The notes beneath the pieces were generated by a model, which worked only from the letters and a program-made list of their open reading frames with translations, did no database searches and was not told the origin of the DNA. The position numbers and the translations under genes were made by a program. A stretch of 64,000 nucleotides of DNA from Candidatus Poribacteria bacterium (GTDB taxonomy: Bacteria > Poribacteria > WGA-4E > UBA9662): assembly GCA_036339735.1 (NCBI GenBank), contig JAYZAL010000087.1:1-64000 (forward strand), in the 5' to 3' direction. This document shows, piece by piece, positions 31,333 to 48,691 of this stretch. Numbering within the stretch: the first letter of the stretch is position 1; the number at the start of each line of letters is the position of its first letter.

Positions 31333-31352
31333 ACAGGTTTCAAGGGTGCATT

Positions 31353-32012: not shown

Positions 32013-32188
32013 ATAGCTTTGGGGAACATTTGAACCCCTAACCAATTTACATTAAGAAACGAATAGATTCGTCTGTTGATTATTCAATCATGGTGTTGAG
32101 ATTAAGTTTTTCTATTTAATAATTTAACACTTGTTACGCCAATCCTTTTGGCTGACATATTTTTTTTTAACTATAGGAGGCGGTTTTT

Positions 32189-33451
32189 ATGCTGTTATTA
32201 AATAAAGTTAAAATCTACGTTCTATTACTATTTGTTATGTTGTCTGCCAGCACCTTAGTACGAGTTCAGGCCTATGCAGCCAGCCACCCACCAACCTCTG
32301 AGGTCAATACTACCGGACTAGCAGTTACTAATGACACGGTGACTGTGGGACAACTTCATTCGATTACCGGAACAATGGCAATAAGTGAGACTGGATCAGT
32401 CGAAGCTGAGCGTCTAGCTATATCGCAGATTAATGCAATGGGTGGAGTCCTTGGGCGAAAAATTGAGATCATCCAAGAAGATGGTGCATCGGATTGGCCA
32501 ACCTTCGCAGAAAAGTCAAAAAAGTTAATTATCAAGGATAAAGTCGCGTGTGTTTTTGGGTGTTGGACCTCTGCTTCCCGAAAAGCGGTGCTTCCCATAT
32601 TCGAGAAAGAAAATAACATGCTTTACTACCCAACTTTCTACGAAGGTTTAGAAGCTTCCAAAAACGTTGTTTATACTGGTCAGGAAGCGGTTCAGCAGAT
32701 TCTTTGGGGACTTGATTGGGCTTACGAAAATTTGGGCGCGCGTACTTTTTACCTAATTGGCTCTGACTACATATGGCCGCGCACCTCAAACAAGATTGCT
32801 CGTAACCATATCGAACGGTTTTTAAAGAAAAAAGATCCCAAGTGTAAGGTTGTAGGTGAAGACTACTATCCCCTTGGTCATACTAATTTCCGTTCTTTAA
32901 TCAATAAAGTTAAATTAAAGAAACCTGATTTGATCTACAGTATAGTCGTGGGTGGAAGTAACGTCGCATGGTACAAGCAACTTAAAGCAGCTGGAATAAC
33001 TTCCAAAAAATATAATTTGCTTACTATTTCGACGACTGAGGATGAATTGCTAGGTATCGGAGGTGAAAATGCTGAAGGTTTCTATGCTTGCATGAAGTAT
33101 TTTCAATCTCAGGAAAATCCCAATAATCAGGCCTTCGTAAAAGCATTTAAGGAAATGTGGGGCGACGATTCTGTAATCGGAGACGTTACTCAGGCAGCAT
33201 ATCTTGGACCTTGGATTTGGAAAGCTGCAGTTGAAAAAGCAGGAAGCTTTGACATAGACAAAGTGCATGCTGCTCACCCCGGCATTGAATTGCCAGACGC
33301 TCCGGAAGGATATGTACGTGTACATGAAACTAACCAACATCTGTATAGTCGAGCAAAAATTGGAAAGATCAGAAAAGATGGTCAGTTTGATGTAATGGCG
33401 ATTTCCGAAGACTTAATTGAGCCCGACCCATTCCCAGAGGGATACCAGTAA
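32189..33451 (+). CDS. urtA: Urea/short-chain amide ABC transporter substrate-binding protein (FmdD-like)
   Basis: VNTTGLAVT, LHSITGTMAISE, EDGASDWPTFAEK, GCWTSASRKAV, YYPTFYEGLE, GSDYIWPR; signal peptide. Confidence 0.92.
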   Translation: MLLLNKVKIYVLLLFVMLSASTLVRVQAYAASHPPTSEVNTTGLAVTNDTVTVGQLHSITGTMAISETGSVEAERLAISQINAMGGVLGRKIEIIQEDGASDWPTFAEKSKKLIIKDKVACVFGCWTSASRKAVLPIFEKENNMLYYPTFYEGLEASKNVVYTGQEAVQQILWGLDWAYENLGARTFYLIGSDYIWPRTSNKIARNHIERFLKKKDPKCKVVGEDYYPLGHTNFRSLINKVKLKKPDLIYSIVVGGSNVAWYKQLKAAGITSKKYNLLTISTTEDELLGIGGENAEGFYACMKYFQSQENPNNQAFVKAFKEMWGDDSVIGDVTQAAYLGPWIWKAAVEKAGSFDIDKVHAAHPGIELPDAPEGYVRVHETNQHLYSRAKIGKIRKDGQFDVMAISEDLIEPDPFPEGYQ

Positions 33452-33479
33452 ACAATCGGTTAATCTATTGTTTTGATAG

Positions 33480-33530
33480 TATTCGTGGGGTTTACTGCTC
33501 AATGTGCTAGTGTGGTGGATCCCATGAATA
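33480..33530 (+). other. Long intercistronic hairpin after urtA (probable mRNA-stabilising/partial terminator stem)
   Basis: TATTCGTGGG.../...CCCATGAATA, with further pairing GTTTACTGC/GTGGTGGAT. Confidence 0.5.
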
Positions 33531-33578
33531 ACATCAAAGTGTTTGGGGATGGTTTAGCAATAGATAAAGGAATATTAA

Positions 33579-34502
33579 ATGGGTGATTATACAGCAGCAG
33601 AAATTTACGCGATTGTGGCCATGCAAGGGTTTAGCGGAGTTAGCCTGCTTTGCATTTATGTTCTCATGGGCCTTGGCCTCTATATAATTTTTGGTCAAAT
33701 GGGTGTTATCAACATGGCTCATGCCGAATTCTTGGTTCTTGGCTCATATACCATGTGTCTATTTTCCGAGTTTGTGACAAAGAATGTTCCTTTTTTAACC
33801 ACCTACTATGTCATCCTGGCAATTCCGTTATCCTTCATCATCGCTTTTGGTGTTGGATATTTGGTTGAATGGATCTTGATCAGTCGTCTTTATCAAAGAC
33901 CTCTTGACACCTTACTTGCAACATGGGGATTAAGCCTGATAATGCAACAGTCTTTCAGGACTTTTATTGGTGCACGTGAGAGAAGCGCGGATTTGCCAGA
34001 ATGGCTTCTGGGGTCATGGGCCGTTACCGATATGATCGAAATTCCGATCAGTGGGCTCGTTCTACTTTTTCTCACTGTTCTACTAACCGTTGGTTTAATT
34101 GCCTACACGCAAAGGTCGCGTATGGGGCTGCGGATGAGAGCCACAACACAAAATCGTCAAATGACTAGTGCCTTGGGAATCAATACTAAGATGACTGATC
34201 GTGTTACTTTTGGGATTGCTTGTGGGATTTCTGGGATTGCTGGAGCTTTTTTTACAACCATAGCTTCCACCTCTCCGTCAGCCGGAACTAACTATATTGT
34301 TGATTCGTTTTTGGTTCTAGTTGTAGGTGGATTGGGCAGTTTGTTGGGACTCTTCATATCTGGAGGTTTCCTTGCGTTGCTTTCATCGATCTTGGAATTT
34401 TTCATGACTGGTTCAATTGCCAAGGTCTGGCTCTACATCATTATATTTGCTGTTTTGATGAAATTCACCCGTGGTCTTTTTTCGGAAAGAATTCGCTCAT
34501 AA
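33579..34502 (+). CDS. urtB: Urea/amide ABC transporter permease
   Basis: GLYIIFGQMGVINMAHAEF, RPLDTLLATWGLSL, YIVDSFLVLVVGG. Confidence 0.9.
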   Translation: MGDYTAAEIYAIVAMQGFSGVSLLCIYVLMGLGLYIIFGQMGVINMAHAEFLVLGSYTMCLFSEFVTKNVPFLTTYYVILAIPLSFIIAFGVGYLVEWILISRLYQRPLDTLLATWGLSLIMQQSFRTFIGARERSADLPEWLLGSWAVTDMIEIPISGLVLLFLTVLLTVGLIAYTQRSRMGLRMRATTQNRQMTSALGINTKMTDRVTFGIACGISGIAGAFFTTIASTSPSAGTNYIVDSFLVLVVGGLGSLLGLFISGGFLALLSSILEFFMTGSIAKVWLYIIIFAVLMKFTRGLFSERIRS

Positions 34503-34535
34503 ACCAATATTATTATTCTCCATTATTAGTCAATT

Positions 34536-35687
34536 ATGAATCTTTACGATCGACTTTTTAAAAACAAAGAAGGTTTAGCGGCCTTCATCATCTTGGCCAT
34601 TATACTACTGGTTATTCTTCCAGTTTCACTTAATGTTTTTCGACTGAATCTGACTGGTAAATACTTGTGTTACGCTTTCGTAGCAATTGGTCTTGTAATG
34701 TGCTGGGGCAATTCTGGCATTCTCAGCCTTGGTCAGGGGTTATTCTTCGGAATTGGTGGATATTGTATGGCCATGTTTCTAAAACTTGAAGCCTCTGACC
34801 CAGAAAGCACCTCCATTCAAACTACGCCGGGAATTCCAGACTTCATGGATTGGAACCAGGTTACCGAATTACCTTGGTTTTGGTACCCGTTCAAGAACTT
34901 AGCCTTAACTCTGTCTCTGATCTTGATTCTACCTGTACTAATGGCTTTTATATTGAGTTTCTTTTACTTCAAGGGGCGTGTTACAAATGTGGTTTTTGCC
35001 ATTCTTACTCAGTCAATGGTCGCCTGCCTTTGGTATTTCATCGTAGGCAACCAAGGTTACTTTGGAGGAATCAATGGTATTACTGACTTGAAAACTCTCC
35101 TAGGCTGGGATATACGACCTGAATCAGCACAGAAAAGCCTATATTACGTCTGCGCAATTTTACTTCTTTTTTGTATTCTTGCCAGTAGATATATTTTGTC
35201 GACTCGTCTGGGACGTGTATTAGTTGCTCAACGTGATAAGGAAATGCGTGTTCGTTTCACGGGATATAACATTACGTCTTTCCGTATTTTCGTTTTCTGC
35301 TTTGCCGCCCTGCTTAGTTCAATTGGAGGTGCATTGTTCACCCTGCAGGTTGGATTCATGTCTCCTAATTTGATTGGTATCCAGCCATCTATCGACATGG
35401 TCATTTTTACAGCTGTTGGTGGACGAGAGAGCCTTCTTGGTGCAGTCTATGGCGCTTTAGCAGTTAATGCTGCTAAAACTGCTTTCTCGGAAGCCTATCC
35501 CGGGTGGTGGCTGTTTTTATATGGTTCTACATTCATCGTTATTGTTCTCTTTTTACCTAGGGGTTTAGCTGGACTATATGAAAGTAATATTAGAGGATGG
35601 ATCTCTAAGTTGAGAAAAAGAACTGAACCCGAATCCACACCTGTTATTAGTCAACTAGAAGAGGAGGGATCGAATGCGATCGAGTGA
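34536..35687 (+). CDS. urtC: Urea/amide ABC transporter permease
   Basis: GKYLCYAFVA, WGNSGILSLGQG, PGIPDFMDWN, AVGGRESLLGA. Confidence 0.9.
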   Translation: MNLYDRLFKNKEGLAAFIILAIILLVILPVSLNVFRLNLTGKYLCYAFVAIGLVMCWGNSGILSLGQGLFFGIGGYCMAMFLKLEASDPESTSIQTTPGIPDFMDWNQVTELPWFWYPFKNLALTLSLILILPVLMAFILSFFYFKGRVTNVVFAILTQSMVACLWYFIVGNQGYFGGINGITDLKTLLGWDIRPESAQKSLYYVCAILLLFCILASRYILSTRLGRVLVAQRDKEMRVRFTGYNITSFRIFVFCFAALLSSIGGALFTLQVGFMSPNLIGIQPSIDMVIFTAVGGRESLLGAVYGALAVNAAKTAFSEAYPGWWLFLYGSTFIVIVLFLPRGLAGLYESNIRGWISKLRKRTEPESTPVISQLEEEGSNAIE

Positions 35688-36447
35688 CACCGATTATGTA
35701 CTGGCCATAGAGAATTTGACAGTTAGTTTCGATGGCTTTAAAGCCGTCGACGATCTTACTCTCTATATTGACCAGGGAGAATTAAGAGTAATTATCGGAC
35801 CTAATGGGGCTGGAAAAACTACGGTTTTAGATCTAATCAGCGGTAAGACTTCTGCAACCTCCGGAAGTATCCGCTACAACCCGTATGCACAAAAAAAGGG
35901 TAGAAACATAGAGCTTACCGAAATGCGTGAACATGAAATCGTTCGTGCCGGAATCGGGAGAAAGTTTCAAACACCATCGATCTACGAGAGTCTGACGGTA
36001 TTTGAGAATCTTGAAATTTCTTACCCCCGTGGACGAACAGTGTTGGGCTCATTGACCTTTCAAAGATCAGAGGAAGTAATGGATCGTATTCGTGAAGTGG
36101 CTGAAGCGATATTTCTGATTGAGATGCTAGATTCTCAAGCTGAGCTTTTAAGCCATGGACAGAAGCAGTGGCTAGAGATAGGTATGCTGTTGGTACAAAG
36201 TCCAGATTTAATAATGCTAGATGAGCCAGTTGCTGGGATGAGTGCCAAAGAACGTGATGCAACAGCCGAGCTGCTGCGCGAGGTTTCTAAGGAACACTCG
36301 GTGCTGATTATCGAACATGATATGGATTTTGTGGCCAAGATAGCAGATCAGGTGACCGTGCTTCACTTGGGACAAATTATCATGGAAGGGACAATGGAAG
36401 AAATTCAAAACGATTCAGTCGTACAAGAAGTCTACCTTGGACATTAA
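35674..36447 (+). CDS. urtD: Urea/amide ABC transporter ATPase
   Basis: VSFDGFKA, GPNGAGKTT, GIGRKFQTP, LSHGQKQWLEIGM, LDEPVAGM. Confidence 0.92.
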   Translation: MRSSDTDYVLAIENLTVSFDGFKAVDDLTLYIDQGELRVIIGPNGAGKTTVLDLISGKTSATSGSIRYNPYAQKKGRNIELTEMREHEIVRAGIGRKFQTPSIYESLTVFENLEISYPRGRTVLGSLTFQRSEEVMDRIREVAEAIFLIEMLDSQAELLSHGQKQWLEIGMLLVQSPDLIMLDEPVAGMSAKERDATAELLREVSKEHSVLIIEHDMDFVAKIADQVTVLHLGQIIMEGTMEEIQNDSVVQEVYLGH

Positions 36448-36484
36448 TAATTAGATAATTAACCAAAACTAAGAGTAATTAATT

Positions 36485-37177
36485 ATGTTCCACATAAAAA
36501 ATCTTAAAGTCGGTTATGGTGAGAGCACGGTAATCAGCGGATTGGACTTGGATCTTGGTGAAGGAGAGATTCTAGCCATAATGGGTCGCAACGGAATGGG
36601 TAAGACCACATTGTTCAAATCCGTCATCGGTATTTTAGATTGTGGCAATGGCTCTAGTATCAAAATCGGCGAGCAAGAATTGGCAGAGGCCCCTAGTTTC
36701 ATGCGGGTTCGTCGGGGGTTAGCCTATGTCCCACAAGGTAGGATGATTTTTCCAAGTATGACTGTGAAGGAAAATATTGAAATAGGAATGGATACCACGG
36801 ATCTAAATGAGGTTCCTGATTATATTTATGAGCTGTTTCCAGTGTTGGACGAAATGGGGAAACGTAAAGGCGGAAATTTATCAGGTGGCCAGCAACAGCA
36901 ATTAGCAATTGCTCGGGCTTTAGTCACAGAACCAAAAGTATTACTTTTGGATGAGCCAACCGAGGGAATTCAACCATCAATAATCAAGGAAATGGCCCAA
37001 AAACTTAAAGTGATCAGAGACATGCATGGTATTTCTATTATCGTAGCAGAACAAGTTCTGTCTTTTACTTTGGATGCTTGTGATCGTTTTTTAGTTATGG
37101 AAGGTGGATCAATTGTTCATTCTAGTGATCGAAAGGAGGTGGACGCGGAAAAAATTAAAAGTTTCCTTTCCGTATGA
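36485..37177 (+). CDS. urtE: Urea/amide ABC transporter ATPase
   Basis: GRNGMGKTT, YVPQGRMIF, LSGGQQQQLAIARAL, LDEPTEGIQPSII. Confidence 0.92.
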   Translation: MFHIKNLKVGYGESTVISGLDLDLGEGEILAIMGRNGMGKTTLFKSVIGILDCGNGSSIKIGEQELAEAPSFMRVRRGLAYVPQGRMIFPSMTVKENIEIGMDTTDLNEVPDYIYELFPVLDEMGKRKGGNLSGGQQQQLAIARALVTEPKVLLLDEPTEGIQPSIIKEMAQKLKVIRDMHGISIIVAEQVLSFTLDACDRFLVMEGGSIVHSSDRKEVDAEKIKSFLSV

Positions 37178-37463
37178 TTAACAGGTTTAAGATTCATCAT
37201 TTAAATGAGTTTATTAGGCAAAAAAACAAAAACTAGATTTTGTCAAATAGCTCACCTACGGATATAGTGGTCGAATTTTGGCTGATAACACGGAAGTTCA
37301 GCCGGAATCTTTGTTGAAGGGAACTTCGGGTTTTACTCCGGTATGTTTGAAACAGTAGAAAAAGACAGTGTTCAGAGAAGGTAGTATGTTTTCATTGATA
37401 CGATTTTGAATCAAAATAAACCACAGCGTAAGTTTAGTTTTTTTATATTTATAGGATTTTAAT

Positions 37464-38714
37464 ATGGCCGAAACTAATAAGCCTACTTCACTTATTCGAG
37501 TTGATTTAAACCAGAGTCCTTACGAGAATGAGAATGTCCATAATCGATGGCATCCTGACATTCCAATGGTAGCGACCGTTAAGCCAGGTGATGATTTCGT
37601 GGTTGAGTGTTATGATTGGACTGGAGGGCAAATCAAGAATGACGACTCAGCTGAAGATGTCCGTGATGTAGATCTTGGGCAAGTCCACTTTTTATCTGGA
37701 CCCATAGAGATAGAGGGGGCTGAACCTGGTGATTTACTACAGGTTGACATCTTGGATATTGGTGCATTTTATGAGTCTAGCTGGGGATTTAACGGTTTCT
37801 TCAGCAAAAAAAATGGCGGTGGATTTTTAACCGAGCATTTCCCTGAAGCACAGAAATCTATTTGGGACTTTAATGGTATGTTCACCAAATCTCGACATAT
37901 ACCCGGTGTCGAGTTTGCAGGTTGTTTGCATCCTGGACTGATTGGTTGTCTACCAGACAGAAAAATGCTAGACATGTGGAACACTCGTGAAAAGGAATTA
38001 TACGATACAGATCCTGATCGTGTTCCTGAACTAGCAACATTACCGCAAGCACGCGTAGCACATATGGGACGTATGCCGGCAGATGAAGCCAAGATTGCGG
38101 CAGCTGAGGCGGCAAGGACAGTTCCTCCAAGGGAGCACGGTGGTAACTGTGACATCAAAGATTTATCTCGTGGCTCGACGGTTTACTTTCCGGTCTATCA
38201 AAATGGTGCTGGCCTCTCTATGGGCGACATACATTTTAGTCAAGGTGATGGTGAGATCACATTCTGTGGTGCCATTGAAATGGCCGGTTGGCTCCATCTG
38301 CGTGTGAACTTAATTAAAGATGGAATGGAAAAGTACAGTGTTAAAAATCCGATTTTTAAACCCAGCCCAATAGTACCTAAGTATGATGATTACCTGATTT
38401 TTGAGGGTATTTCTGTTGATGAAGATGGGAGGCAGCATTATTTGGATGTTCATATCGCATATCGTCAAGCTTGTTTAAATGCGATTAGCTACTTGACCAA
38501 GTTTGGCTACAGCGAGGCTCAGGCCTATGCTATTTTGGGTTGTGCACCTGTTCAGGGACATATCAGTGGTGTAGTTGATATCCCTAATGCATGTGCAACA
38601 CTCTGGCTGCCTACTGATGTATTTGATTTTGACGTTCAAATCAATCCAAATGGACCAGAGAAGCATGTCGACTCCTCCTTAATTGATGTCCCTCTTGCAC
38701 CAGACCTTGAGTAA
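37464..38714 (+). CDS. fmdA: Formamidase (acetamidase/formamidase family)
   Basis: HNRWHPDIP, ECYDWTGGQI, PPREHGGNCDIKDL, GDIHFSQGDGEITFCGAIEM, SGVVDIPNAC. Confidence 0.95.
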   Translation: MAETNKPTSLIRVDLNQSPYENENVHNRWHPDIPMVATVKPGDDFVVECYDWTGGQIKNDDSAEDVRDVDLGQVHFLSGPIEIEGAEPGDLLQVDILDIGAFYESSWGFNGFFSKKNGGGFLTEHFPEAQKSIWDFNGMFTKSRHIPGVEFAGCLHPGLIGCLPDRKMLDMWNTREKELYDTDPDRVPELATLPQARVAHMGRMPADEAKIAAAEAARTVPPREHGGNCDIKDLSRGSTVYFPVYQNGAGLSMGDIHFSQGDGEITFCGAIEMAGWLHLRVNLIKDGMEKYSVKNPIFKPSPIVPKYDDYLIFEGISVDEDGRQHYLDVHIAYRQACLNAISYLTKFGYSEAQAYAILGCAPVQGHISGVVDIPNACATLWLPTDVFDFDVQINPNGPEKHVDSSLIDVPLAPDLE

Positions 38715-38742
38715 CCAAAATAAAGTTAATTAGGAGCAATTT

Positions 38743-39087
38743 ATGCCACTCTATGAATATAAATGCAGAGAACATGGAATCTTCTCAGAATTAGCTACTT
38801 TAGCTGATAGTGCACACCCCACAGATTGCCCCCAATGTGGGGCAACCTCTCCTCGGATACTGACCTTGTCGCCTCGTGTAGTTTTAGCTCTCAAGGAAGG
38901 TGTGAGTATTAAGGCAATAGAACGTAATGAGAAGGCTCAAAATGAACCAGAGGTTTCCACCGTGGATAGGCGACAAAACGACGATAAACATATCATTGGT
39001 AAAAGTATAGGCAAGTCTAAAGTTATATATACTGCTGACGGAAAGAAAATGTTTCCCTCTATGAGGCCTTGGATGATAAGTCACTAG
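38743..39087 (+). CDS. fmdB: FmdB Zn-ribbon regulatory protein
   Basis: MPLYEYKCREHG...CPQCG; C-terminal RPWMISH; follows fmdA. Confidence 0.88.
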   Translation: MPLYEYKCREHGIFSELATLADSAHPTDCPQCGATSPRILTLSPRVVLALKEGVSIKAIERNEKAQNEPEVSTVDRRQNDDKHIIGKSIGKSKVIYTADGKKMFPSMRPWMISH

Positions 39088-39540
39088 ATTTAGCTTTTAC
39101 TCTCATCTATTGAAATTGATTTGCTAACAGCCAACGTGCAAAATATTGGACCTAAAAGCATATTTAGCATTTATAGGCTGAGAATCTAGAATCGTTGTGA
39201 CTAAACAAAAATCTCGGGCCAAAAAAGTAAAAAGTAAACAGCGTTATCACTCTGAACATATCTGTCTACTTTTAATGCATCTCTTAGCTGTCCTGACAAT
39301 TGACAGATAATATTCATATAAGGTTTGCTAGGTGATGTTGTCGTATTTGTAATGTACTAGAGTTTCGCGTAAAACGCATAATCGTTTTAAGTCTATATTT
39401 GTTTAGGATTTAGGCTAATCCCAAGTAATACGAAAAACAAGTAAACTTCAGTTGTATTGAAAGTGATCTGTTTGATGATTATTGCGTTCCTTTATTTTTT
39501 ATTAATTATACATTAGTCCTGACAAAATGGTGGACGATGC

Positions 39541-39569
39541 TTGACAGGAGTGTTATGTTATATCATAAT
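39541..39569 (+). promoter_or_regulatory. Sigma70 promoter with an embedded Zur box (zur autoregulation)
   Basis: TTGACA (39541) - 17 nt - CATAAT (39564); the spacer and -10 contain TGTTATGTTATATCATAAT, a near copy of the 40807 palindrome. Confidence 0.75.
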
Positions 39570-39614
39570 GAATGTGTTGGTTGTTAACAACAAACACCCA
39601 AAAGGCATTTTCAT

Positions 39615-40115
39615 ATGAATAAGCAGCAAATAGATCGTGTGATCGATAAAGCAAAGTACCTTTGCGAACGTTCGGGGACACGTTTGACAGAGAAGCGCAG
39701 AAGCGTTTTAGAACTTTTACTGGTTTCCAATATACCTTTATCGGCCTATGAAATTACTGATGCTTATAATCAGATCGATGAAAAACCCATTCTGGCAATG
39801 TCAGTATATCGCATTTTAGAATTTCTCGAGTCAGAGAACTTGGTGCACAAACTAAGTTCAACCAATAAATACGTCGCTTGTTCCCATATCACTTGTGGGG
39901 AGGTGCACGGAATCCCACAATTTTTAATTTGCGGTGAATGCCAAATCACTAGAGAAATCGCGTGTGGTGGATGTAAGGATGAGAAAGAAATATCAATTTC
40001 CAAAAGCGTGATTGATGAGCTAGGTAAACTGGTTGGTAAAGCGGGTTACACGCTTATAAATTCACAATTGGAGTTACGGGTCCTCTGTAATAACTGCTCG
40101 GTGAGTAAGGCTTAA
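39615..40115 (+). CDS. zur: Zinc uptake regulator (Fur family), copy 1
   Basis: RLTEKRRSVLELL, LSAYEI, SVYRILEFL, VHKLSSTNKYVACSH, QFLICGEC, CNNC; Zn-uptake context. Confidence 0.85.
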   Translation: MNKQQIDRVIDKAKYLCERSGTRLTEKRRSVLELLLVSNIPLSAYEITDAYNQIDEKPILAMSVYRILEFLESENLVHKLSSTNKYVACSHITCGEVHGIPQFLICGECQITREIACGGCKDEKEISISKSVIDELGKLVGKAGYTLINSQLELRVLCNNCSVSKA

Positions 40116-40117
40116 CC

Positions 40118-40174
40118 CTGTCGAATTACTTTTGTCAATCACCTGAATCCATCACCAAAAGAGAATTTACATCA
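40118..40174 (+). pseudogene. Decayed 5' fragment of hisI left by the zur-hisI duplication
   Basis: Reads LSNYFCQSPESITKREFTS versus HisI N-terminus MLNRFYKSLESITTGEFIS, at the same 2-nt spacing after the zur stop. Confidence 0.7.
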
Positions 40175-40498
40175 TCCACCTGGCATCGAATGATGTTGGA
40201 GGAGTCTGAATACTTTTCAAGGTGTAAAAAGTTACTTTTCGCGGTGGGGGTATTTCATCATCTTGGCTTCTCTAGCACGTGTTTATACACGATTGGCAGC
40301 CCAAGCTGAAAATATCAACTAACATCAAGCCAGACCCTTGCAACGGTCTTAATCGGCTAACAAGATTATTATTGAAATTGGCCAACTCTCTTGTGTGACA
40401 GATTTAAGACCTATTTAGCCAAAATCTAAAGTCGAAAAGGACTTTGGTTGAATTATGTGGGCTGGTTAACAGGGCAGATTTGGGTCTCTAATATCAAT

Positions 40499-40533
40499 CA
40501 AAGCGGGGAAGTTTAATCAACTTCCCCGCTTTG
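40499..40533 (-). terminator. Strong hairpin terminator for the His/Asp lipopeptide gene (possibly bidirectional)
   Basis: CAAAGCGGGGAAGTT-TAATC-AACTTCCCCGCTTTG, perfect 15-bp stem about 25 nt past the stop. Confidence 0.8.
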
Positions 40534-40556
40534 GTTCGATCCACCCAAGAACTTAT

Positions 40557-40766
40557 TTATTTTGTTCCATCGTCATGATCATCATCTTGGTCATGATCGT
40601 CGTGATCATCATCGTCGTGATCATCATCGTGGTCATGATCGTCGTGATCGTCGTGATCGTCATCGTCTGTATCACAGGCAGTGATTAAGAACATCGAACT
40701 AAACAGCAATATAAAGAGCATCAGCCCAATAAAAACTGGCTTAAATCTGAGACTAGCCAACGTCAT
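40557..40766 (-). CDS. Small lipoprotein whose mature part is almost entirely Asp/His (putative Zn-binding peptide)
   Basis: GGAGG RBS before ATG 40766; signal peptide with lipobox LITA-C; mature CDTDDDDHDDHDDHDHDDDHDDDDHDDHDQDDDHDDGTK; has its own terminator. Confidence 0.8.
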   Translation of the reverse strand: MTLASLRFKPVFIGLMLFILLFSSMFLITACDTDDDDHDDHDDHDHDDDHDDDDHDDHDQDDDHDDGTK

Positions 40767-40780
40767 TGTTATAAACCTCC

Positions 40781-40834
40781 TTGACAAAGGATTTGGTAAT
40801 CAATAAAATATGTTATGTTATAACATAACATATT
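40781..40834 (+). promoter_or_regulatory. Sigma70 promoter overlapped by a perfect 28-bp Zur-type palindrome, in a divergent intergenic region
   Basis: TTGACA (40781) - 17 nt - TAAAAT (40804); AATATGTTATGTTA|TAACATAACATATT at 40807-40834. Confidence 0.85.
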
Positions 40835-40981
40835 GGGCGGGTTTTTACAACCCCCACCCAAACAGGTACTCTCAGATGGACAACCAGCAATCAGATCGAA
40901 TTTGTTTTAACACATCACCATCGGCTTACAGAAAAGCTCGAATTAAGTCTTGGAATCCGTTTCCGAAGCTAAGGAGCTAGT

Positions 40982-41419
40982 ATGACCGAAATTACACCTA
41001 CGTCATCTTCTTTAGTAGATGATGCTCAGACAGCTCGGCCCTCTGTACTTCACGTATGCACATCTTGTAGAACACCCGGCTCACCACGTGAGCCAGAAGA
41101 GAATCGAGCAGGTTTTAAACTATATCAAGAACTTTCCACGGTTTTTCGAGACAGTACGTTGGGACACCATGTGAAGGTTCAGCCTACCGTCTGCCTCAAC
41201 GTGTGCTCACGCCACTGTGGGATCGCGCTCTCTTCCCCTGGTGCCTGGAGTTATATCTTCGGAGACCAAAACCCAAGTGAGAGTACAAGTGATATCGTAG
41301 AGTGTTTGTCGATCTACATCGGCACCGAAGATGGAGTCATGCGACGAGAGAAGCGTCCTAAGTCTCTTCGAACAAGTATATTGGGGCGTGTGCCACCCCA
41401 AGGTGGAATTACTGAGTGA
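40982..41419 (+). CDS. DUF1636 family metal-binding (thioredoxin-like ferredoxin fold) protein
   Basis: LHVCTSCR...VCLNVCSRHCGIALSSPGAWSYIFGD...RP..LR...GRVPP; AAGGAG RBS. Confidence 0.8.
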   Translation: MTEITPTSSSLVDDAQTARPSVLHVCTSCRTPGSPREPEENRAGFKLYQELSTVFRDSTLGHHVKVQPTVCLNVCSRHCGIALSSPGAWSYIFGDQNPSESTSDIVECLSIYIGTEDGVMRREKRPKSLRTSILGRVPPQGGITE

Positions 41420-41457
41420 GCAATTCATTTTTGAGTGATGACAGCAAACGTTTTCAT

Positions 41458-41961
41458 ATGAATAGAAAGCAACTCAATCACGTTCTCGATAGAGTAAAAG
41501 AGATTTGTACCCGTTCTGGCTGGCGTCTGACCGAAAAGCGCAGAGGTGTTTTAGAACTTTTGCTAATGTCCGATGTTCCTTTGTCGGCCTACGAAATCAC
41601 TGATGCTTACAATCAGATCGCCAAAAAATCGATCACAGCCATGACCGTATACCGGATTGTGGGATTTCTCGAGTCAGAAAATTTGGTACACAAACTTAAT
41701 TCAACCAATAATAAATACGTTGCCTGTTCCCATATTGCTTGTAGACAAGCGCACGAAATCCCACAATTTTTAATTTGTGGTGAATGCCAAACTACCAAAG
41801 AAATCGCATGTGGTGGATGCCCAGATGAGAAAGAAATATCAATTTCCAAAAATGTGATTGATGAGCTAAGCAAACTGGCCAGTAGGGCAGGTTACAGGCT
41901 TATAAATTCGCAATTGGAACTGCGGGTTCTCTGCAATAACTGCTCGGTGAGTAAAGCTTAG
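41458..41961 (+). CDS. zur: Zinc uptake regulator (Fur family), copy 2
   Basis: Closely similar to 39615..40115 along its length (both end INSQLELRVLCNNCSVSKA). ATG 41458 has the same TTTTCATATGAAT context; the ORF is open from 41416. Confidence 0.85.
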   Translation: MNRKQLNHVLDRVKEICTRSGWRLTEKRRGVLELLLMSDVPLSAYEITDAYNQIAKKSITAMTVYRIVGFLESENLVHKLNSTNNKYVACSHIACRQAHEIPQFLICGECQTTKEIACGGCPDEKEISISKNVIDELSKLASRAGYRLINSQLELRVLCNNCSVSKA

Positions 41962-41963
41962 CT

Positions 41964-42401
41964 ATGTTGAATCGTTTTTATAAATCGCTTGAATCTATTA
42001 CTACAGGGGAATTCATTTCGCTTGACGAATGCGTTAAACACTTGACTTTTAATAACCAAGGTTTAATCCCTGTAGTGACACAGTGTTACCATAGTAAAGA
42101 TGTACTAATGCAAGCTTGGATGAACCGAGCGGCAATTGAAAAAACGTTGACCTCTGGACTGATGACCTACTGGTCTCGTAGTCGTCAAGAGTTCTGGGTG
42201 AAAGGCGAAACCAGTGGTCATACTCAACAGTTGGTGGATATGCGCTTTGATTGCGATGGAGACACCATCCTATGTCAGGTTAAGCAGATGGGCTCAGCTT
42301 GTCATACTGATCGCCCCAACTGTTTTTACTTGCAGGTCGATACCGATAATCAAGTGGTAAAATTGCATAAAGCAGATCAAGACAAGAGTGATCAATCATG
42401 A
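41964..42401 (+). CDS. hisI: Phosphoribosyl-AMP cyclohydrolase (Zur-regulon paralogue)
   Basis: GLIPVVTQ, VLMQAWMN, YWSRSRQEFWVKGETSGHTQ, DCDGD, ACHT..NCF. Confidence 0.92.
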   Translation: MLNRFYKSLESITTGEFISLDECVKHLTFNNQGLIPVVTQCYHSKDVLMQAWMNRAAIEKTLTSGLMTYWSRSRQEFWVKGETSGHTQQLVDMRFDCDGDTILCQVKQMGSACHTDRPNCFYLQVDTDNQVVKLHKADQDKSDQS

Positions 42402-42522
42402 TTAAAATCAAAATGATCCGTGTCAAACCCCTTCTGTATTGGAGTGTCTGGAGTCGTATGGGGTTGGCACTGTTTCTAAGCCTGATTATGTGGGCATTGG
42501 TATTAGGAATTATCCGTTCATC

Positions 42523-43266
42523 ATGAGTATTCAACTTAATAACCTTACGCTTACCTATGGGCGACATCCAGCAGTACATCATGTGACAGCGTCTATCGCC
42601 CAAGGAGATTGGCTAGCCATTGTAGGACCCAATGGTGCAGGGAAATCGACTCTGCTGAATGCTATGGCTGGGCTAACTACAGTTCATCAGGGTGGAGTTG
42701 AAGGTAGCATTGAAGGTTTATGTCCAAATGCGGTGGCCTATCTACCACAGCAAACACAGTTAGATAAAAGTTTCCCCATCAACGTGTTTGAGCTAGTAGT
42801 AACAGGCTTATGGGCTGAACTTGGTTTTTCAAAGTCCGTGACTAGGAAACAATATGATCAATGTGCAGATGCGATAGCAGCGGTAGGCTTACAAGGTTTC
42901 GAAGACCGCATGATCAATACACTTTCCGGTGGGCAATTACAACGCAGCCTGTTTGCACGAGTCCTTCTACAAGACCAATCAGTGATCTTATTGGATGAGC
43001 CTTTTAACGCAATTGATTCAAAAACCTTAGCTGATCTGACTGACGTAATACAGCAATGGCATCAAAATAAGCGAACCGTAATCATGGTGACGCATGACCT
43101 TGAATATGTGCAACAAAACTGCCCCAAAACCATGTTGCTAGCACGAGAGTGCATTGGGTACGGCTTAACCGAAGATGTTCTTACCCGAAAAAATTTAAAG
43201 CGGGCAAGACAAATTTCTGAAGCATTTGATGACCATGCTGAATTATGTGTACAAGGTATAGCATGA
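42523..43266 (+). CDS. Zn/Mn ABC transporter ATPase (AztA/ZnuC-like)
   Basis: YGRHPAVH, GPNGAGKSTLL, AYLPQQ, LSGGQLQR, LLDEPF, VTHD; probable start ATG 42523. Confidence 0.9.
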   Translation: MSIQLNNLTLTYGRHPAVHHVTASIAQGDWLAIVGPNGAGKSTLLNAMAGLTTVHQGGVEGSIEGLCPNAVAYLPQQTQLDKSFPINVFELVVTGLWAELGFSKSVTRKQYDQCADAIAAVGLQGFEDRMINTLSGGQLQRSLFARVLLQDQSVILLDEPFNAIDSKTLADLTDVIQQWHQNKRTVIMVTHDLEYVQQNCPKTMLLARECIGYGLTEDVLTRKNLKRARQISEAFDDHAELCVQGIA

Positions 43267-43267
43267 T

Positions 43268-44134
43268 ATGAATGCACTATTAATTGGCCCCTTCAGTGAT
43301 TATGTTTTTATGCAACGTGCGTTAGTCGGTAGTCTTGCCGTTTGTCTGGGTTCTGTACCTGTGGGAATATTTATGACATTACGACAAATGAGCTTAACAG
43401 GTGATGCTATGGCTCACGCCATACTGCCGGGGGCAGCCATAGCCTATTTGCTGTCAGGTTTATCTTTGGTGGCGCTTACCTTGGGGGGGCTGGTAGCGGG
43501 GCTCGTAGTAGCAGCACTGGCAGGTTGGGTTGCACGCAGTACTCACCTTAAGGAGGACACTAGTCTCGCGGCCTTTTATTTAGTCTCTCTAGCCTTAGGT
43601 GTTTTAGTGATTTCACTCAAGCACAGTAACGTGGACTTGTTTCATGTACTCTTTGGTAATATTTTAGCCCTCGATAACGCAGCATTATGGTTGTTAGCTA
43701 GTATAGCTACGATCAGTATGGTGTTTATGGCTTTTTTATATCGCTCTTTGGTAATTGAATGTGTCGACCCTTCGTTTTTGCGTCGTTCCAGCAAGGCGAG
43801 CTCAATCGCCCATTACGGTTTTTTATTTTTAATGGTAATTAATTTAGTAGGAGGCTTTCATGCCCTAGGCACATTGATGGCAATTGGTATCATGATTTTA
43901 CCCGCAGCAGCGGCCCGATTTTGGGCGAAAACATTGGATGGCATTCTCACGACCTCTATACTAATGAGCTTTGCAGGTTGTTATGCTGGTCTATTACTCT
44001 CTTTCTACTTTGATTTACCTGCGGGCCCGGCCATTGTACTTTCATTGGGTATGGTTTACATGACCTCGATATTTATTGGTTTCAATGGTGGATTGCTTGA
44101 AAAATACTATTCGGGCAGCCACCTTACGGGATAA
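43268..44134 (+). CDS. Zn/Mn ABC transporter permease (AztB/ZnuB-like)
   Basis: FMQRAL, MSLTGDAMAHAILPG, DLFHVLFGNILA, ILPAAAAR, PAGPAIV. Confidence 0.9.
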   Translation: MNALLIGPFSDYVFMQRALVGSLAVCLGSVPVGIFMTLRQMSLTGDAMAHAILPGAAIAYLLSGLSLVALTLGGLVAGLVVAALAGWVARSTHLKEDTSLAAFYLVSLALGVLVISLKHSNVDLFHVLFGNILALDNAALWLLASIATISMVFMAFLYRSLVIECVDPSFLRRSSKASSIAHYGFLFLMVINLVGGFHALGTLMAIGIMILPAAAARFWAKTLDGILTTSILMSFAGCYAGLLLSFYFDLPAGPAIVLSLGMVYMTSIFIGFNGGLLEKYYSGSHLTG

Positions 44135-44138
44135 CACT

Positions 44139-45026
44139 ATGTATCAGATAAAAAGATTTTTAAAATCAATGTTTCTATGCCTATTTTTTTTGGCAAATGT
44201 CGTCAGCGCTGGCGACTCAAGTATTCGTGTTGTCACCAGCTTTTCTATTTTGGAAAACTTAGTCAACGAGTTAGGTGGTCAATACGTCAGTGTGATAAAT
44301 CTAGTTAGTCGAAATAGCGACGCGCATATGTATCAACCCAAACCCTCCGATGCCGTTTCTATTGCAAAGGCTGACTTGGTCGTCTTCAACGGACTGGGGT
44401 TCGAAGGCTGGATTCCACGTCTAATAAAAAATAGTGGCTACAAAAATAAACAAATTATTGCGAGTGAGGGCGTTGATGCCATTAAGAATGGTAAGGAGAT
44501 TGACCCACATGCCTGGCAGAGTTTTCACAACATTCGTCTGTATGTCCAAAATATTACTCAGGCGTTGATAGAGCTTAGGCCACAGCATGTAAAAGCCTTA
44601 ACCAAACGTCAGCAGAAATATCTAGGCTCGATAAGCAATTTAGAAAAGCGTCTCAAAAAACAGTTTGCAAGTATTCCCTCGAATAAACGTATTGTCGTGA
44701 CTAGTCATGATGCATTTGGTTATTTAGGACGTGAGTTTAATATTCGGTTTCTAGCACCACTTGGGCTAAGTATAGAAGTCGAAGCTTCAGCTGAGGATGT
44801 GGCCGCCATTATCGATCAGATACGTGAGCAAAATGTCAAAGCACTCTTTGTAGAAAATATCAATAATCCGCGCTTGTTAGAGCTGATTTCTGCCGAGACG
44901 AATGTTGCCATCGGTGGTCGTCTCTATTCGGACGCATTAAGTGAAATCAAAGGTCCAGCAGACACATATTTAAAAATGATGCGACATAATATCGAGTCGT
45001 TAATCAATAGATTAAATACCCATTAA
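44139..45026 (+). CDS. Zn/Mn ABC transporter substrate-binding protein (AztC/ZnuA-like)
   Basis: VVTSFSIL, DAHMYQPKPSD, NGLGFEGW, DPHAWQS, TSHDAFGY, LYSDALS; signal peptide from ATG 44139. Confidence 0.9.
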   Translation: MYQIKRFLKSMFLCLFFLANVVSAGDSSIRVVTSFSILENLVNELGGQYVSVINLVSRNSDAHMYQPKPSDAVSIAKADLVVFNGLGFEGWIPRLIKNSGYKNKQIIASEGVDAIKNGKEIDPHAWQSFHNIRLYVQNITQALIELRPQHVKALTKRQQKYLGSISNLEKRLKKQFASIPSNKRIVVTSHDAFGYLGREFNIRFLAPLGLSIEVEASAEDVAAIIDQIREQNVKALFVENINNPRLLELISAETNVAIGGRLYSDALSEIKGPADTYLKMMRHNIESLINRLNTH

Positions 45027-45057
45027 ATTTAGGGGTGAATAAAGTTAAGGAGTCAAG

Positions 45058-46500
45058 ATGAGCCAAAAAGTAAAAAGAAAACAACGAAAAGATAAAAAGA
45101 AAAGCCAAGCCCGTAACCGATCGAAAGCAAATGTGGTCGAATCAAAACCATCAGTTCTTAATAAGATTCCCGTTACTGTACTGACAGGTTTTCTTGGTAG
45201 TGGTAAAACTACACTACTTAATCGCATTTTATCGGAAGAGCATGGCCTACGCATCGCCGTAATCGAAAATGAATTTGGTGAAATTGGGATTGACCAAGAC
45301 TTAGTGATTAATGCTGATGAAGAGATTCTCGAAATGAACAATGGTTGCATTTGTTGTACAGTCCGTGGGGATTTAATTCGCATCTTGGGCGAATTAGCCA
45401 AGCGTAAAGACAAATTTGACCGTGTGATTTTAGAAACGACAGGCATGGCTGACCCTGGTCCCGTAGCTCAAACATTCTTTGTAGATCAAGATATTATTGA
45501 TCAATATGAACTCGATGGCATTATCACCCTAGTGGATTCCAAGCATGTCAACGCCCACTTGGATGATGGTACTGATGAAGTTATGTCTCAGCTGGCTTTC
45601 GCCGATCGTATTATACTTAATAAAGCGGATCTGGTAACTGAAGGCCGACTCTCCAGTTTAAAGACGCGCTTGCAGGAAATGAATCAAATGGCAGGGTTTT
45701 ATTCAGCTACCATGGCCGATGCTCCCATTGCTGAACTGCTGGATATTGGCGGTTTTAATCTTTCACGTGCCGTGGAGATGAAACCCAATTTCTTGGAGCC
45801 CGAATACCCCTTCGAGTGGGGTGGTATTTGGCAGTTGCCAGCAGGCCACTATCGTTTCCAGTTAGCCAACGGCCCGGACCCGGATATGACTTTTCTGATG
45901 TCTGAAGTTGAAGATGCCTCTGAATCAGCGGTCTTGGAGTTAGCAGAAGAGGTATTTGTCGAATTCTCAAGAACGCCAGCGCAGTTGTCACACGGACAGT
46001 CAATAGCTGAAGTTGCTAAGTGTTACAGGCTCCAACTGGTAGGCCAAGAACTCTATGAATTTCATCTCGAAACGGAAGACGCTAAGGATGTAGCGATTTT
46101 TTCTCAGCACACTCCGGAAGAGTTCGATATGAAATTGGTCAACCAGGATAATGCCGAATATAGTCCGGTCGCTGAACACTTTTTTAATGCCGAACATGAG
46201 CATGATGATGCTGTCTCATCTGTTTCAGTTGAATTACCTGGATTATTTGACATAGAAAAAATCAACGGCTGGCTTGGTATGTTTCTCCAAGAAAAAGGCG
46301 TTGATATTTATCGCATGAAAGGTATAGTAGGATTAAAAGGCGAAAAACGTAAAATTGTGTTTCAAGGGGTTCATATGATTTTTGGTAGTGAGCCAGGAAA
46401 ACCCTGGGGTGCTGAGGAACCGGTAAACCGAATGATTTTTATTGGCAAAGATCTAGATGAAGAATATATACATGGTTCATTGCAAGCTTGTTTAAACTAA
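45058..46500 (+). CDS. COG0523/CobW-family metallochaperone GTPase with central insertion
   Basis: [33 protein letters not shown]; insertion starting [10 protein letters not shown]; CobW_C HEHDD...YRMKG..FQGVH. Confidence 0.92.
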
Positions 46501-46527
46501 GCAAAACGGTACAAGGCGAATTTCTGT

Positions 46528-46965
46528 ATGAAAAATATAAAAAATATATTCCGCAACCTTGAAAAAAAACTGGAACAGTCAAAATGGTTTGGAGATGACT
46601 GGGAAATATATAATCGTGGCGTTTACTTACAACTCTACAAAGTGAATTGGTACAACGAGAATCAAGGTGGAATACATTTTGAAACCTATATTGAAGCGCC
46701 TCAGATTAAACAAAAATCATTTCCAGTCTGTATGCATGCAGAAGAGGATTGTCCATCTCAACCAGTATTTATTCAAAAAATTCTGGATATGGAGGGCGAT
46801 CGAATAAAAAGTTGGAAGGGATATCAAGCCAGCGGTAAGGGGTACGTTATTTGTCAGCGAACACTGTCGCTTAATTTGAAAAACCTAGAACAACGGCTTT
46901 TTGAAGAGTTTAACCGGCTTCGGCAGCTTGAAGCTTCCGTTGAAAAGGTACTACTCTCGATTTAA
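46528..46965 (+). CDS. Hypothetical protein in the Zn-starvation cluster
   Basis: 145-aa ORF 27 nt after the CobW stop; protein-like composition (YLQLYKVNW, GGIHFETYIE). Confidence 0.6.
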   Translation: MKNIKNIFRNLEKKLEQSKWFGDDWEIYNRGVYLQLYKVNWYNENQGGIHFETYIEAPQIKQKSFPVCMHAEEDCPSQPVFIQKILDMEGDRIKSWKGYQASGKGYVICQRTLSLNLKNLEQRLFEEFNRLRQLEASVEKVLLSI

Positions 46966-47010
46966 TCACAAGTTTATTTGATTCAGAGGAATGAATGTGA
47001 GGTTAAAACT

Positions 47011-47199
47011 ATGAAACGAAATCAAAGTCCTTGCATAGATATGTGTATTTTCTCAGGACCTAAGGGATGGTGCTTGGGCTGTGGTCGTACTCGGAAAGAA
47101 TGTCAGAAGTGGAAGAAAATGAAGCCCTATGCTAAAATTACTCTTCAGAAGGAACTCAAAAAGAGGATGTCTCAAATAGAGGCTAAGCAAATCCGATAA
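47011..47199 (+). CDS. DUF1289 family small Cys-rich protein
   Basis: SPCIDMC...WCLGCGRT..E...W..M; GAGG RBS before ATG 47011. Confidence 0.8.
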   Translation: MKRNQSPCIDMCIFSGPKGWCLGCGRTRKECQKWKKMKPYAKITLQKELKKRMSQIEAKQIR

Positions 47200-47397
47200 A
47201 AAAGTTTAACCAAATTTGTTGCTGAAACCTCTGGAAGATTTTGGTTAGTCTGCTTAACCGTAAGGGGATATCAAAATAGTCAAGGACTCGGCTGAACTTG
47301 TAACGATTATTTCTGTTTGTCTTGGAAACTTGCGGATGTAGATTGGGTTTCTATTGATTCATCTTCTAATTTGGAGCAGGAATAGGAGGATTTTTCT

Positions 47398-47625
47398 ATG
47401 CCCGTGTACGATTTCGAATGTATTGATTGTGAAATCATGTTTGAAGAAAAGCTATCCATTACCGAATCTGATAAAACTGTAAGCTGCCCCTTTTGCCAGA
47501 ATCAAAATACGAAGAAGCGACTTAGTATACCGATGATTTTCAAAAAACAGGCTAGCTCTCCAAGTCCTAGTCCTAACCAAGCTGCAGCATCAAGAAGACA
47601 CTTCTCAGGCTGTCCTTGTTGTTAG
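47398..47625 (+). CDS. FmdB-family Zn-ribbon protein
   Basis: MPVYDFECIDC...FE...CPFC...KRLS; ends HFSGCPCC; AGGAGG RBS. Confidence 0.85.
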   Translation: MPVYDFECIDCEIMFEEKLSITESDKTVSCPFCQNQNTKKRLSIPMIFKKQASSPSPSPNQAAASRRHFSGCPCC

Positions 47626-47644
47626 TCATTATTTTTCATTTTCA

Positions 47645-48691
47645 GTGGTGAATCACATGAATCATATTACAGAATCCCCAATCCCAATTACTATTCTCAG
47701 TGGTTTTCTAGGAGCTGGCAAAACCTCACTACTCAACCATATTCTACATGGCAATCACGGATTAAAAGTTGGGGTGTTAGTGAACGATTTCGGTGAAATT
47801 AATATCGATGCCGAACTAGTAGCTGGTGCTTCTGACAACTCAGTCAGTTTATCTAATGGTTGTGTCTGTTGTTCGATTCGGGATGACTTGGTTGAATCAA
47901 CACTCCAACTGCTAGATAGCTCTGATTGCCCCGAATACTTGATATTGGAGACTAGTGGAGTCGCTGATCCAGTAGCTGTAACCAGAACTTTTTTGGAAAG
48001 CGAACTAGAATCTAGGATTGAGATTGATAGTATCCTGACAGTAGTCGACGCCGATAATGTCGATCAATTGGATGGTGAGTACCAAGATTTAGCCCAAAAT
48101 CAGGTTGGTATAGCTGACATCGTGATCTTGAATAAGATTGACTTAGCTGACCAAGCGAAATTGGATCAGATAAAAACTTGGATCCAAGAACTGGTGCCGA
48201 GTGCTCGGGTAATCGATACGACTCACGGCCAAGTTCCTCTGGAGCTCATTCTGGGGATTGGTCAATTCAAGATTGAAAGGCTTGCCAACCGTTCAGAATC
48301 TGATATTCATGTTCATAGCGCAGACGATGATCACGACCACCATCATGATCACGACCACCATCATGATCACGACCACCATCATCATGACCACACATTGGTT
48401 TTTAGTACTTGGAGCTATAGTTCGGATATGCCCCATTCTTACAAGGCTTTACGTCAAGCAGTGGAAAGTCTGCCTAGAACTATCTATCGAGCTAAAGGGA
48501 TCGTCTTTTTAGATGAATCACCCGACCGACGGGGCGTGTTTCAATTGGTTGGACAGCGAACCCGTGTTTCTGTAAGTGACGAGTGGGGAGAACAAACTCC
48601 TTATACTCATATCGTAGTTATTGGTAGTGACGATGGGATTGATGCCGATGAGTTGAATCAACGATTTACGGCTTGTCAGGTTAAGAGCTAA
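47645..48691 (+). CDS. COG0523/CobW-family metallochaperone GTPase with His-rich linker
   Basis: LSGFLGAGKTS, VNDFG, GCVCC, ETSGVADP, NKID, poly-His/Asp tract, YRAKG. Confidence 0.92.
   Translation: MVNHMNHITESPIPITILSGFLGAGKTSLLNHILHGNHGLKVGVLVNDFGEINIDAELVAGASDNSVSLSNGCVCCSIRDDLVESTLQLLDSSDCPEYLILETSGVADPVAVTRTFLESELESRIEIDSILTVVDADNVDQLDGEYQDLAQNQVGIADIVILNKIDLADQAKLDQIKTWIQELVPSARVIDTTHGQVPLELILGIGQFKIERLANRSESDIHVHSADDDHDHHHDHDHHHDHDHHHHDHTLVFSTWSYSSDMPHSYKALRQAVESLPRTIYRAKGIVFLDESPDRRGVFQLVGQRTRVSVSDEWGEQTPYTHIVVIGSDDGIDADELNQRFTACQVKS
48329..48382 (+). repeat. 18-bp tandem repeat x3 encoding DHDHHH
   Basis: GATCACGACCACCATCAT repeated three times exactly. Confidence 0.9.

Follow-up and report, generated by a model that had tools for sequence, protein, structure and literature searches.

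A domain-less Asp/His-rich lipopeptide gene beside a putative Zur operator in Candidatus Poribacteria, with a possible role in zinc uptake

Within a stretch of 64,000 nucleotides from a marine, pelagic Candidatus Poribacteria bacterium (GenBank assembly GCA_036339735.1, contig JAYZAL010000087.1, positions 1 to 64,000 of the forward strand; the whole stretch is referred to below as the window), a small gene on the minus strand encodes a predicted lipopeptide composed largely of aspartate and histidine, upstream of which lies a perfect palindrome that is common to a divergent zinc-uptake operon and reads as a putative Zur operator. The unit is real, zinc-linked and unusual, and the interpretation placed on it is partly supported. 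The best explanation taken as a whole, in which the product would serve as a Zur-repressed, lipid-anchored zinc antenna aiding a binding protein that has no His-rich loop of its own, is considered to have roughly even chances of being correct. The gene is probably a narrow-lineage offshoot of one encoding a larger lipoprotein, as judged from its sequence. The source genome, designated G000, comprises 4.32 Mb and is 92% complete.

The open reading frame (ORF) at 40557-40766 (minus strand), stop codon included, encodes 69 amino acids (aa), translated as MTLASLRFKPVFIGLMLFILLFSSMFLITACDTDDDDHDDHDDHDHDDDHDDDDHDDHDQDDDHDDGTK, which read as a prolipoprotein-like signal peptide (residues 1-30), Cys31 and a 38-residue Asp/His tail. 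The signal peptide and lipobox together occupy codons 1-31 (40674-40766, minus strand). Inspected by eye, the n-region carries R7 and K9, the hydrophobic core of residues 11-27 is free of charge, and the lipobox reads I-T-A-C31; the peptide thus conforms to the pattern expected of a bacterial lipoprotein, with a positive n-region, an uncharged core and the lipobox [LVI][ASTVI][GAS]C placed some 15-35 residues into the protein. A crude regular-expression scan of our own design picked 78 candidate lipoproteins in G000, the peptide among them. The mature part, counted from Cys31, has 39 residues, comprising 25 Asp, 8 His, 2 Thr and one each of Cys, Gln, Gly and Lys, and the eight histidines stand 2-6 residues apart with carboxylates flanking them. 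The tail (40560-40673, minus strand) is encoded by a tandem repeat with a period of 42 nt, 2 copies and 95% matches, and its length varies among homologues and among contigs assembled from RNA libraries. A GGAGG ribosome-binding site is located at 40776-40780 on the minus strand, with the ATG 9 nt further on, and the unit ends in a terminator hairpin at 40499-40533 (minus strand) whose stem has 15 bp; the 81-nt terminator stretch folds with -35.6 kcal/mol (z -7.6), a value equalled by none of 200 shuffles.

An earlier reading of this DNA, made from the sequence only, had described the ribosome site, the lipoprotein signal, a strong terminator and a mature part of 39 residues with 25 Asp, 8 His and no folded domain, and the present analysis bears out each of these points. 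In Pfam, 0 families match the peptide at E <= 0.01, and it comes near the cut-off of no NCBIfam family, the weak matches of its tail being to nickel/cobalt efflux loops far below their cut-offs. Its top match in the ESM Atlas (0.75) belongs to an unnamed, mostly viral cluster and falls below the level of a lead. A his-leader-type attenuator was considered for the unit and rejected, given that no minus-strand gene follows the terminator and that the signal peptide is conserved.

The palindrome at 40807-40834 consists of two 14-nt arms that are 100% complementary and separated by a spacer of 0 nt, at a distance of 40 nt from the ATG of the peptide gene, so that the earlier description of a perfect 28-bp palindrome common to the divergent zinc operon holds in full. 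A sigma-70-like site, TTGACA-17 nt-TAAAAT (40781-40809, plus strand), overlaps it. With up to 3 mismatches, the 20-nt core of the palindrome occurs twice in the window, compared with 0.01 occurrences expected from 100 shuffles, and the exact core occurs a single time in the 4.32-Mb genome. The second occurrence in the window, with 3 mismatches, is a Zur-like box found by the core scan at 39551-39570, upstream of a Fur-family regulator gene and overlapped by a promoter-like site on the plus strand (39541-39569). Elsewhere in G000, near-copies with 3-4 mismatches comprise two in a FolE2 cluster on contig C7, one upstream of a 773-aa ORF on contig C28 that, judged from its N-terminal sequence alone, may encode a TonB-type receptor, and one before ilvB that is regarded as doubtful; a copy with 5 mismatches precedes the other ZnuA-family gene of the genome, on contig C2. 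FolE2, HisI paralogues, COG0523 proteins and znuABC are classical members of Zur regulons. The palindrome thus lies over a promoter-like site and its motif recurs at other zinc-starvation genes, as an operator of this kind should, and the genomic distribution of the motif fits that of a Zur box. The regulator convergent with the peptide gene (39615-40115, plus strand) and the one within the divergent operon both have Zur as their best NCBIfam match, at 73.5 and 70.8 bits respectively; since both scores lie below the cut-off of 167, the name Zur rests on best match and context. Because the palindrome is common to the peptide gene and the znu operon, the peptide would be produced along with the transporter under zinc shortage.

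Homologues of the peptide were sought with a word-indexed search of 5.8 billion proteins, from which 8000 candidates were scored. Among these, 15 proteins reached E <= 0.01, of which 14 are clear family members of 44-72 aa from metagenomes. They retain the start, the hydrophobic core, the LITAC lipobox and a C-terminal HDDG(T)K, with a varying number of Asp/His units, and when the 15 sequences are aligned, core and lipobox show little or no variation and no charged residue stands in the core. When 1.84 billion representatives were searched exhaustively with a profile of the peptide family, only 4 matches came back, two of them from the peptide's own family, which indicates that this family is small. 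A metagenome scan provided two loci: L016 represents the same strain at 99.3% identity, and the diverged L017 is 83% identical to the window across the flank containing the convergent zur gene and retains the core of the box, the ribosome site and the signal region. The 3-kb stretch around the gene is partly present in 20 RNA-library runs from 16 studies. In four runs, each from another study, the coverage was examined, and contigs indicating presence of the ORF were found in three: X1 (40474-40794, with an in-frame skip of 51 nt), X4 (40546-40776, with a 6-nt insertion) and X5 (40636-40795). The ends at 40794 and 40795, from two studies, provide a weak hint of a transcript start. Taken together with its sequence anatomy, these data suggest that the small ORF is a real and probably translated gene.

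The second element of the explanation is the periplasmic binding protein encoded in the divergent operon (44139-45026, plus strand), a ZnuA-family, AztC-like protein without a His-rich loop. The position of that loop is occupied by GVDAIKNGKEIDPHAW, and in an alignment with 15 relatives the loop is short in all sequences and contains no His before the DPH(A/V)W ligand motif, in agreement with the earlier statement that only a short segment stands where a His/acidic loop is usually found. H63, H124, H190 and D265, which we take to be the zinc-type ligand set, are invariant. The protein scores 260 bits against the AztC model, under the cut-off of 350, and its signal reads as one of the signal-peptidase-I type, from which a periplasmic location is expected. 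A His-rich loop is present in the second ZnuA-family protein of G000 (C2:34033-35067), probably the native zinc binding protein of this organism. Since the island protein is loop-less while the C2 protein carries the loop, the pairing of a loop-less binding protein with a free Asp/His peptide is real within G000, as a sample of one. Among 176 genomes from the phylum, the island protein turned up at E <= 1e-90 in 1, namely G000 itself, and its nearest named relatives are labelled Candidatus Poribacteria bacterium (89% identity), Pseudomonadales bacterium (79%) and Cellvibrionaceae bacterium (73%). According to PMC6689063, zinc-specific cluster A-I proteins commonly have a flexible loop rich in His, AztC requires a short loop and three His for transfer from AztD, and the separate helpers ZinT, PhtD and AztD deliver zinc or are proposed to do so. 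A predicted complex of the mature peptide, the mature binding protein and 2 Zn (score 0.00, mark 0.32) weighs neither way.

In the mechanism proposed here, the 69-aa product would be exported by the Sec pathway, receive a lipid on Cys31 and be cleaved by signal peptidase II, resulting in a lipid-anchored, disordered polyanion of 39 residues. Genes for LspA (141.9 bits) and for a LolA-like protein (38.7 bits) are present in G000. According to the E. coli sorting rule, Asp at position +2 leads to retention in the inner membrane; this residue is found in 6 of the 78 candidate lipoproteins, and it would keep the peptide in the inner membrane. When zinc is sufficient, Zur bound to the palindrome would shut both divergent promoters. 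When both are open, the tail would act as a low-affinity, multi-site antenna in which Asp-flanked His imidazoles catch Zn2+ at the periplasmic surface of the membrane, and the captured zinc would raise the local supply for the loop-less binding protein. Considered by itself, the function as an antenna acting in trans is plausible, with the balance poised between yes and no.

The origin of the gene may be sought in a family of 164-aa lipoproteins, in which two of the four matches of the peptide-family profile are N-terminal fragments (E 1.8e-4 and 4.2e-4). An hhalign comparison of the peptide alignment with that of this family gave a probability of 96%, and the 23 matched columns take in the signal core, the lipobox and the first acidic residues; the match is mostly signal peptide, and signal-peptide composition may inflate the profile and hhalign results alike. 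With BLASTP, the peptide and the paralogue on contig C7 gave a non-significant E of 1.2, and the connection is therefore made by profile methods only. Members of the 164-aa family come from the Poribacteria genus, Neomarinimicrobiota and Krumholzibacteriia and consist of the lipobox, a short Asp/Glu/His linker, a modelled Ig-like beta-sandwich and a conserved C-terminal His motif. The model of the Ig-like domain has a mean pLDDT of 76, with S-layer, filamin and Big_2-type domains as top fold matches; no Pfam or NCBIfam family matches the proteins, and a profile search of the PDB returned nothing under E 0.45. This family may be an undescribed family of metal-binding lipoproteins. Among the 78 candidate lipoproteins of G000, the first 20 mature residues are most acidic and His-rich in the peptide (14 Asp/Glu, 5 His) and the C7 paralogue (9 and 5), and both genes are preceded by a Zur-like box.

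Since the signal and first mature residues of the peptide match the N-terminus of the 164-aa family, the peptide probably stems, by truncation and repeat expansion, from the 5' module of such a lipoprotein gene. In the simplest course of events, this module (signal plus Asp/His linker) of a gene fronted by a Zur box would have been truncated, and the linker would then have been expanded by repeat slippage. Like the peptide, the 164-aa proteins continue after the lipobox with residues rich in Cys-Asp/Glu-Asp-Asp-His, and the G000 copy stands under a Zur-like box; unlike them, the peptide does not extend beyond the linker, itself expanded roughly four-fold; it ends 38 residues past the Cys and has neither the Ig-like domain nor the C-terminal His motif. 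Longer or fused forms of the peptide were not found at E <= 0.01 among the 8000 candidates, which is weak evidence. The sequence-only reading had named a truncated remnant of a longer ZnuA- or ZinT-like lipoprotein as the finding that would speak against it; the N-terminus does match a longer lipoprotein, but the presumed parent is Ig-like and resembles neither ZnuA nor ZinT.

The C7 paralogue belongs to a second cluster of zinc-starvation genes (contig C7, about 28960-32650; locus L013, 4965-8650, minus strand), in which two Zur-like boxes accompany genes for the 164-aa lipoprotein, a small secreted ORF, FolE2 (232.8 bits) and a 188-aa lipoprotein whose C-terminus is a run of His and Asp. In other families of the same order (loci L002-L005 and L010-L011), long Asp-rich linkers composed of Asp, Tyr, His and Asn directly follow the lipobox Cys and precede various domains; their presence in several related lipoproteins makes acidic linkers after the Cys appear to be a recurrent trait of the order.

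Several observations weigh against a zinc antenna, and some of them feed the main rival explanation, in which the gene is an evolutionary by-product: a partial 5' duplicate of the 164-aa gene, comprising its promoter box, signal and Asp/His linker, with a stop codon and an expanding microsatellite-like repeat, which is transcribed and perhaps translated, without a selected function, and is drifting or decaying. Transcription would persist in that case because a good promoter and ribosome site were kept. The resemblance of the peptide's N-terminus to that of the 164-aa family, for which a possible inflation by signal-peptide composition was mentioned above, suits this account, as do the hypervariable length of the tandem-repeated tail (proteins of 44-72 aa) and the loss seen in a sister lineage (P0015, P0017 and L017), where the lipobox Cys is replaced by Tyr and the tail has shrunk to 10-13 residues. 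By our own count, 8 non-synonymous and 3 synonymous changes separate the 31 signal codons of the window from those of L017, a near-neutral pattern. Because the tail is a slippage-prone tandem repeat, its reading frame stays open by composition. The peptide is absent from both same-genus species representatives; in a tblastn comparison, it was recovered as a short ORF in 1 of 41 related genomes, G000, and although 34 of the 41 gave matches at E <= 1, those outside G000 are all Asp-rich linkers of longer lipoproteins or low-complexity stretches. Scanning a collection of genome contigs with the peptide alignment produced 80 pattern matches, 0 of which were confirmed. It follows from the absence in close kin that any function of the peptide is dispensable for them. 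The RNA-library contigs show presence alone, not strand or level, and may derive from contaminating DNA; the fourth run examined, X3, has no contig over the ORF, which is a gap and not evidence. As regards processing, Lgt was not found in G000, at 92% completeness, but a search of 20 relatives recovered it in 19, both same-genus genomes among them. Finally, with Asp and His in a ratio of 3:1, magnesium and calcium would take up much of the charge in seawater.

Against decay stand the persistence of the start, the ribosome site, the uncharged core, the lipobox and HDDG(T)K in four diverged sequence groups, the lack of any charged residue in the hydrophobic core of the 15 aligned sequences, and the possession of a strong terminator by the gene itself. 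All length changes seen are in frame as well, a weak argument because the repeat unit is codon-based and predicted proteins are selected for openness. On balance, the by-product account is regarded as unlikely, while being the main competitor of the antenna function. The excess of Asp over His (25 against 8) also suits a general polyanionic lipopeptide of the envelope, which would bind calcium, magnesium or another metal such as nickel, cobalt, copper or iron, or tune surface charge, or buffer an excess, its position at the zinc operon being incidental or reflecting a broader metal role. DUF1636 and COG0523 are tied to cobalamin and cobalt contexts too, according to Pfam family names, and the weak NCBIfam matches of the tail to nickel/cobalt efflux loops, far under the cut-offs, point in the same direction. 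What makes this account distinctly improbable is the recurrence of the operator motif at the FolE2 cluster, znuCBA and zur, the fact that derepression in shortage suits acquisition over detoxification, and the finding that such N-termini are confined, among the 78 candidates, to the two Zur-box lipoproteins. The short monocistronic layout, the very stable terminator and, as a weak hint, the contig ends near 40794/40795 in two studies would also be expected of a small RNA under Zur control, some 300 nt in length and terminated by the hairpin, similar to Fur-controlled regulatory RNAs, with the ORF incidental or secondary. Such an RNA is highly improbable in view of the canonical GGAGG at proper spacing and the conservation of signal and lipobox at the protein level; no Rfam family was matched, the sole match having an E of 0.26, far below the gathering score, and the repeat part varies in length, unlike a structured RNA.

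Returning to the antenna function, a more far-reaching version would describe the peptide as a lipid-anchored, domain-less zincophore made on ribosomes. Fatty-acid-tailed marine siderophores offer a comparison. Here, a brush of 39 Asp/His residues, cut from a larger Zur-regulated lipoprotein, would hold zinc against loss to the open sea and supply the antenna in trans, so that an acquired transporter would have been retrofitted with a home-made helper. That the transporter was acquired is suggested by the closest named relatives of the binding protein, which include Gammaproteobacteria. This version is put forward tentatively and is considered doubtful.

Several known systems resemble the peptide in part. 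The His-rich loop of ZnuA-type proteins, which is shorter in AztC, is likewise a disordered His/acidic periplasmic stretch under Zur control that is thought to capture zinc or receive it from a partner (PMC6689063), whereas the peptide, instead of being inserted in a binding protein, is encoded by a gene of its own, bears a lipoprotein signal and is far richer in Asp; a remnant of ZnuA (PF01297) is not indicated by the Pfam search, in which 0 families matched. Also comparable are ZinT and the PA4063/ZrgA proteins of Pseudomonas and Vibrio Zur regulons, separate periplasmic helpers in zinc shortage whose disordered His-rich tracts or loops aid zinc binding (PMC8561739 and PMC9820375 for PA4063 and ZrgA, PMC6689063 for ZinT). 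Unlike the peptide, these proteins are soluble and contain folded domains; for PA4063, a noncanonical ferredoxin-like fold and histidine-rich loops that are disordered in the apoprotein are reported (PMC8561739/PMC9820375). The peptide is predicted to be lipid-anchored, has no domain and shows no sequence relation to ZinT or ZrgA, the Pfam search at E <= 0.01 having returned 0 families, PF09223 and PF10986 included. ZinT was not found in G000, and a search of the genome for the ZrgA family was uninformative, as its control matched nowhere.

PhtD of Streptococcus, a surface protein occurring with AdcAII, is likewise encoded beside a zinc binding protein; it differs in having Pht domains, while the peptide has neither the triad motif nor a domain and its host possesses a periplasmic binding protein and a LolA-like gene. 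AdcAII presumably lacks a His-rich loop. Hrl (MG_149) of Mycoplasma genitalium is a lipoprotein rich in His; a Fur-family regulator represses it by way of a dyad operator close to the -10 element, added zinc lowers its expression, and the authors speculate about a metallophore-like or substrate-binding role (PMC6968530). Hrl differs from the peptide in its expected size of 32 kDa and its link to nickel uptake and an ECF-type transporter (PMC6968530), and in its unrelated sequence. Both PA4063, with its ferredoxin-like fold, and Hrl are thus far larger than the present peptide, which amounts to a bare linker. Literature searches retrieved no description of a domain-less Asp/His lipopeptide, and a Zur-regulon table in some supplement could still list such genes. 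The earlier claim that no described family is like this one accordingly stands with regard to sequence, in Pfam and NCBIfam, but not with regard to function, for which ZinT, PhtD, PA4063, ZrgA and Hrl are analogues in print. What is new here is the domain-less form, in a narrow lineage, functional analogues with folded domains being already known.

Should the peptide prove to bind zinc and pass it on to the transporter, no smaller accessory of a zinc uptake system would be known, and the His/acidic antenna would be shown directly to be a module that is portable and needs no folded scaffold to function. The role of the disordered His-rich loops of ZnuA-type proteins, which has long been debated, would then become testable with a 38-residue synthetic peptide and a naturally loop-less binding protein. 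The case also illustrates how, in an ocean habitat poor in zinc, the 5' end of a larger gene can give rise to a small one. Should the peptide be a decaying fragment only, the consequences would be slight.

The genes around the unit form a zinc island. Starting 147 nt past the palindrome, a divergent row on the plus strand, with genes tightly spaced or overlapping, encodes in order DUF1636, a Fur-family regulator, a HisI paralogue, ZnuC, ZnuB, the ZnuA-family protein, a COG0523 GTPase and a 145-aa protein that matches no family; family scans place the operon from DUF1636 to COG0523 at 40982-46500. The two zur paralogues (39615-40115 and 41416-41961), which share about 80% DNA identity, flank the unit of peptide gene and DUF1636 gene. 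Directly after the second of them, within the zinc operon, follows the HisI paralogue (PRA-CH, phosphoribosyl-AMP cyclohydrolase; 41964-42401), which is presumably a zinc-sparing replacement enzyme. Compared with the window, the same-genus genome G002 is 96% identical over 30001-37466, where its contig ends, and 85-91% identical over 45790-49998, with no match to about 37466-45790, from a formamidase gene to the start of the first COG0523 gene; since its contigs break at the edges of the island, absence of the island there is unproven. In a synteny comparison within the genus, DUF1636 was not found in 5 genomes, whose binding proteins are just 27-31% identical. The match of G002 to the flanks only, and the identity of 73-79% between the binding protein and proteins labelled Pseudomonadales and Cellvibrionaceae, suggest that the island is a flexible and possibly horizontally exchanged region. 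Further downstream, a second COG0523 GTPase (47645-48691) has its two domains separated by a long run of His and Asp, from which a weak, sub-threshold match to the ZrgA family arises, and a repetitive surface-type protein of 3844 aa (52420-63954, minus strand) fills the end of the window.

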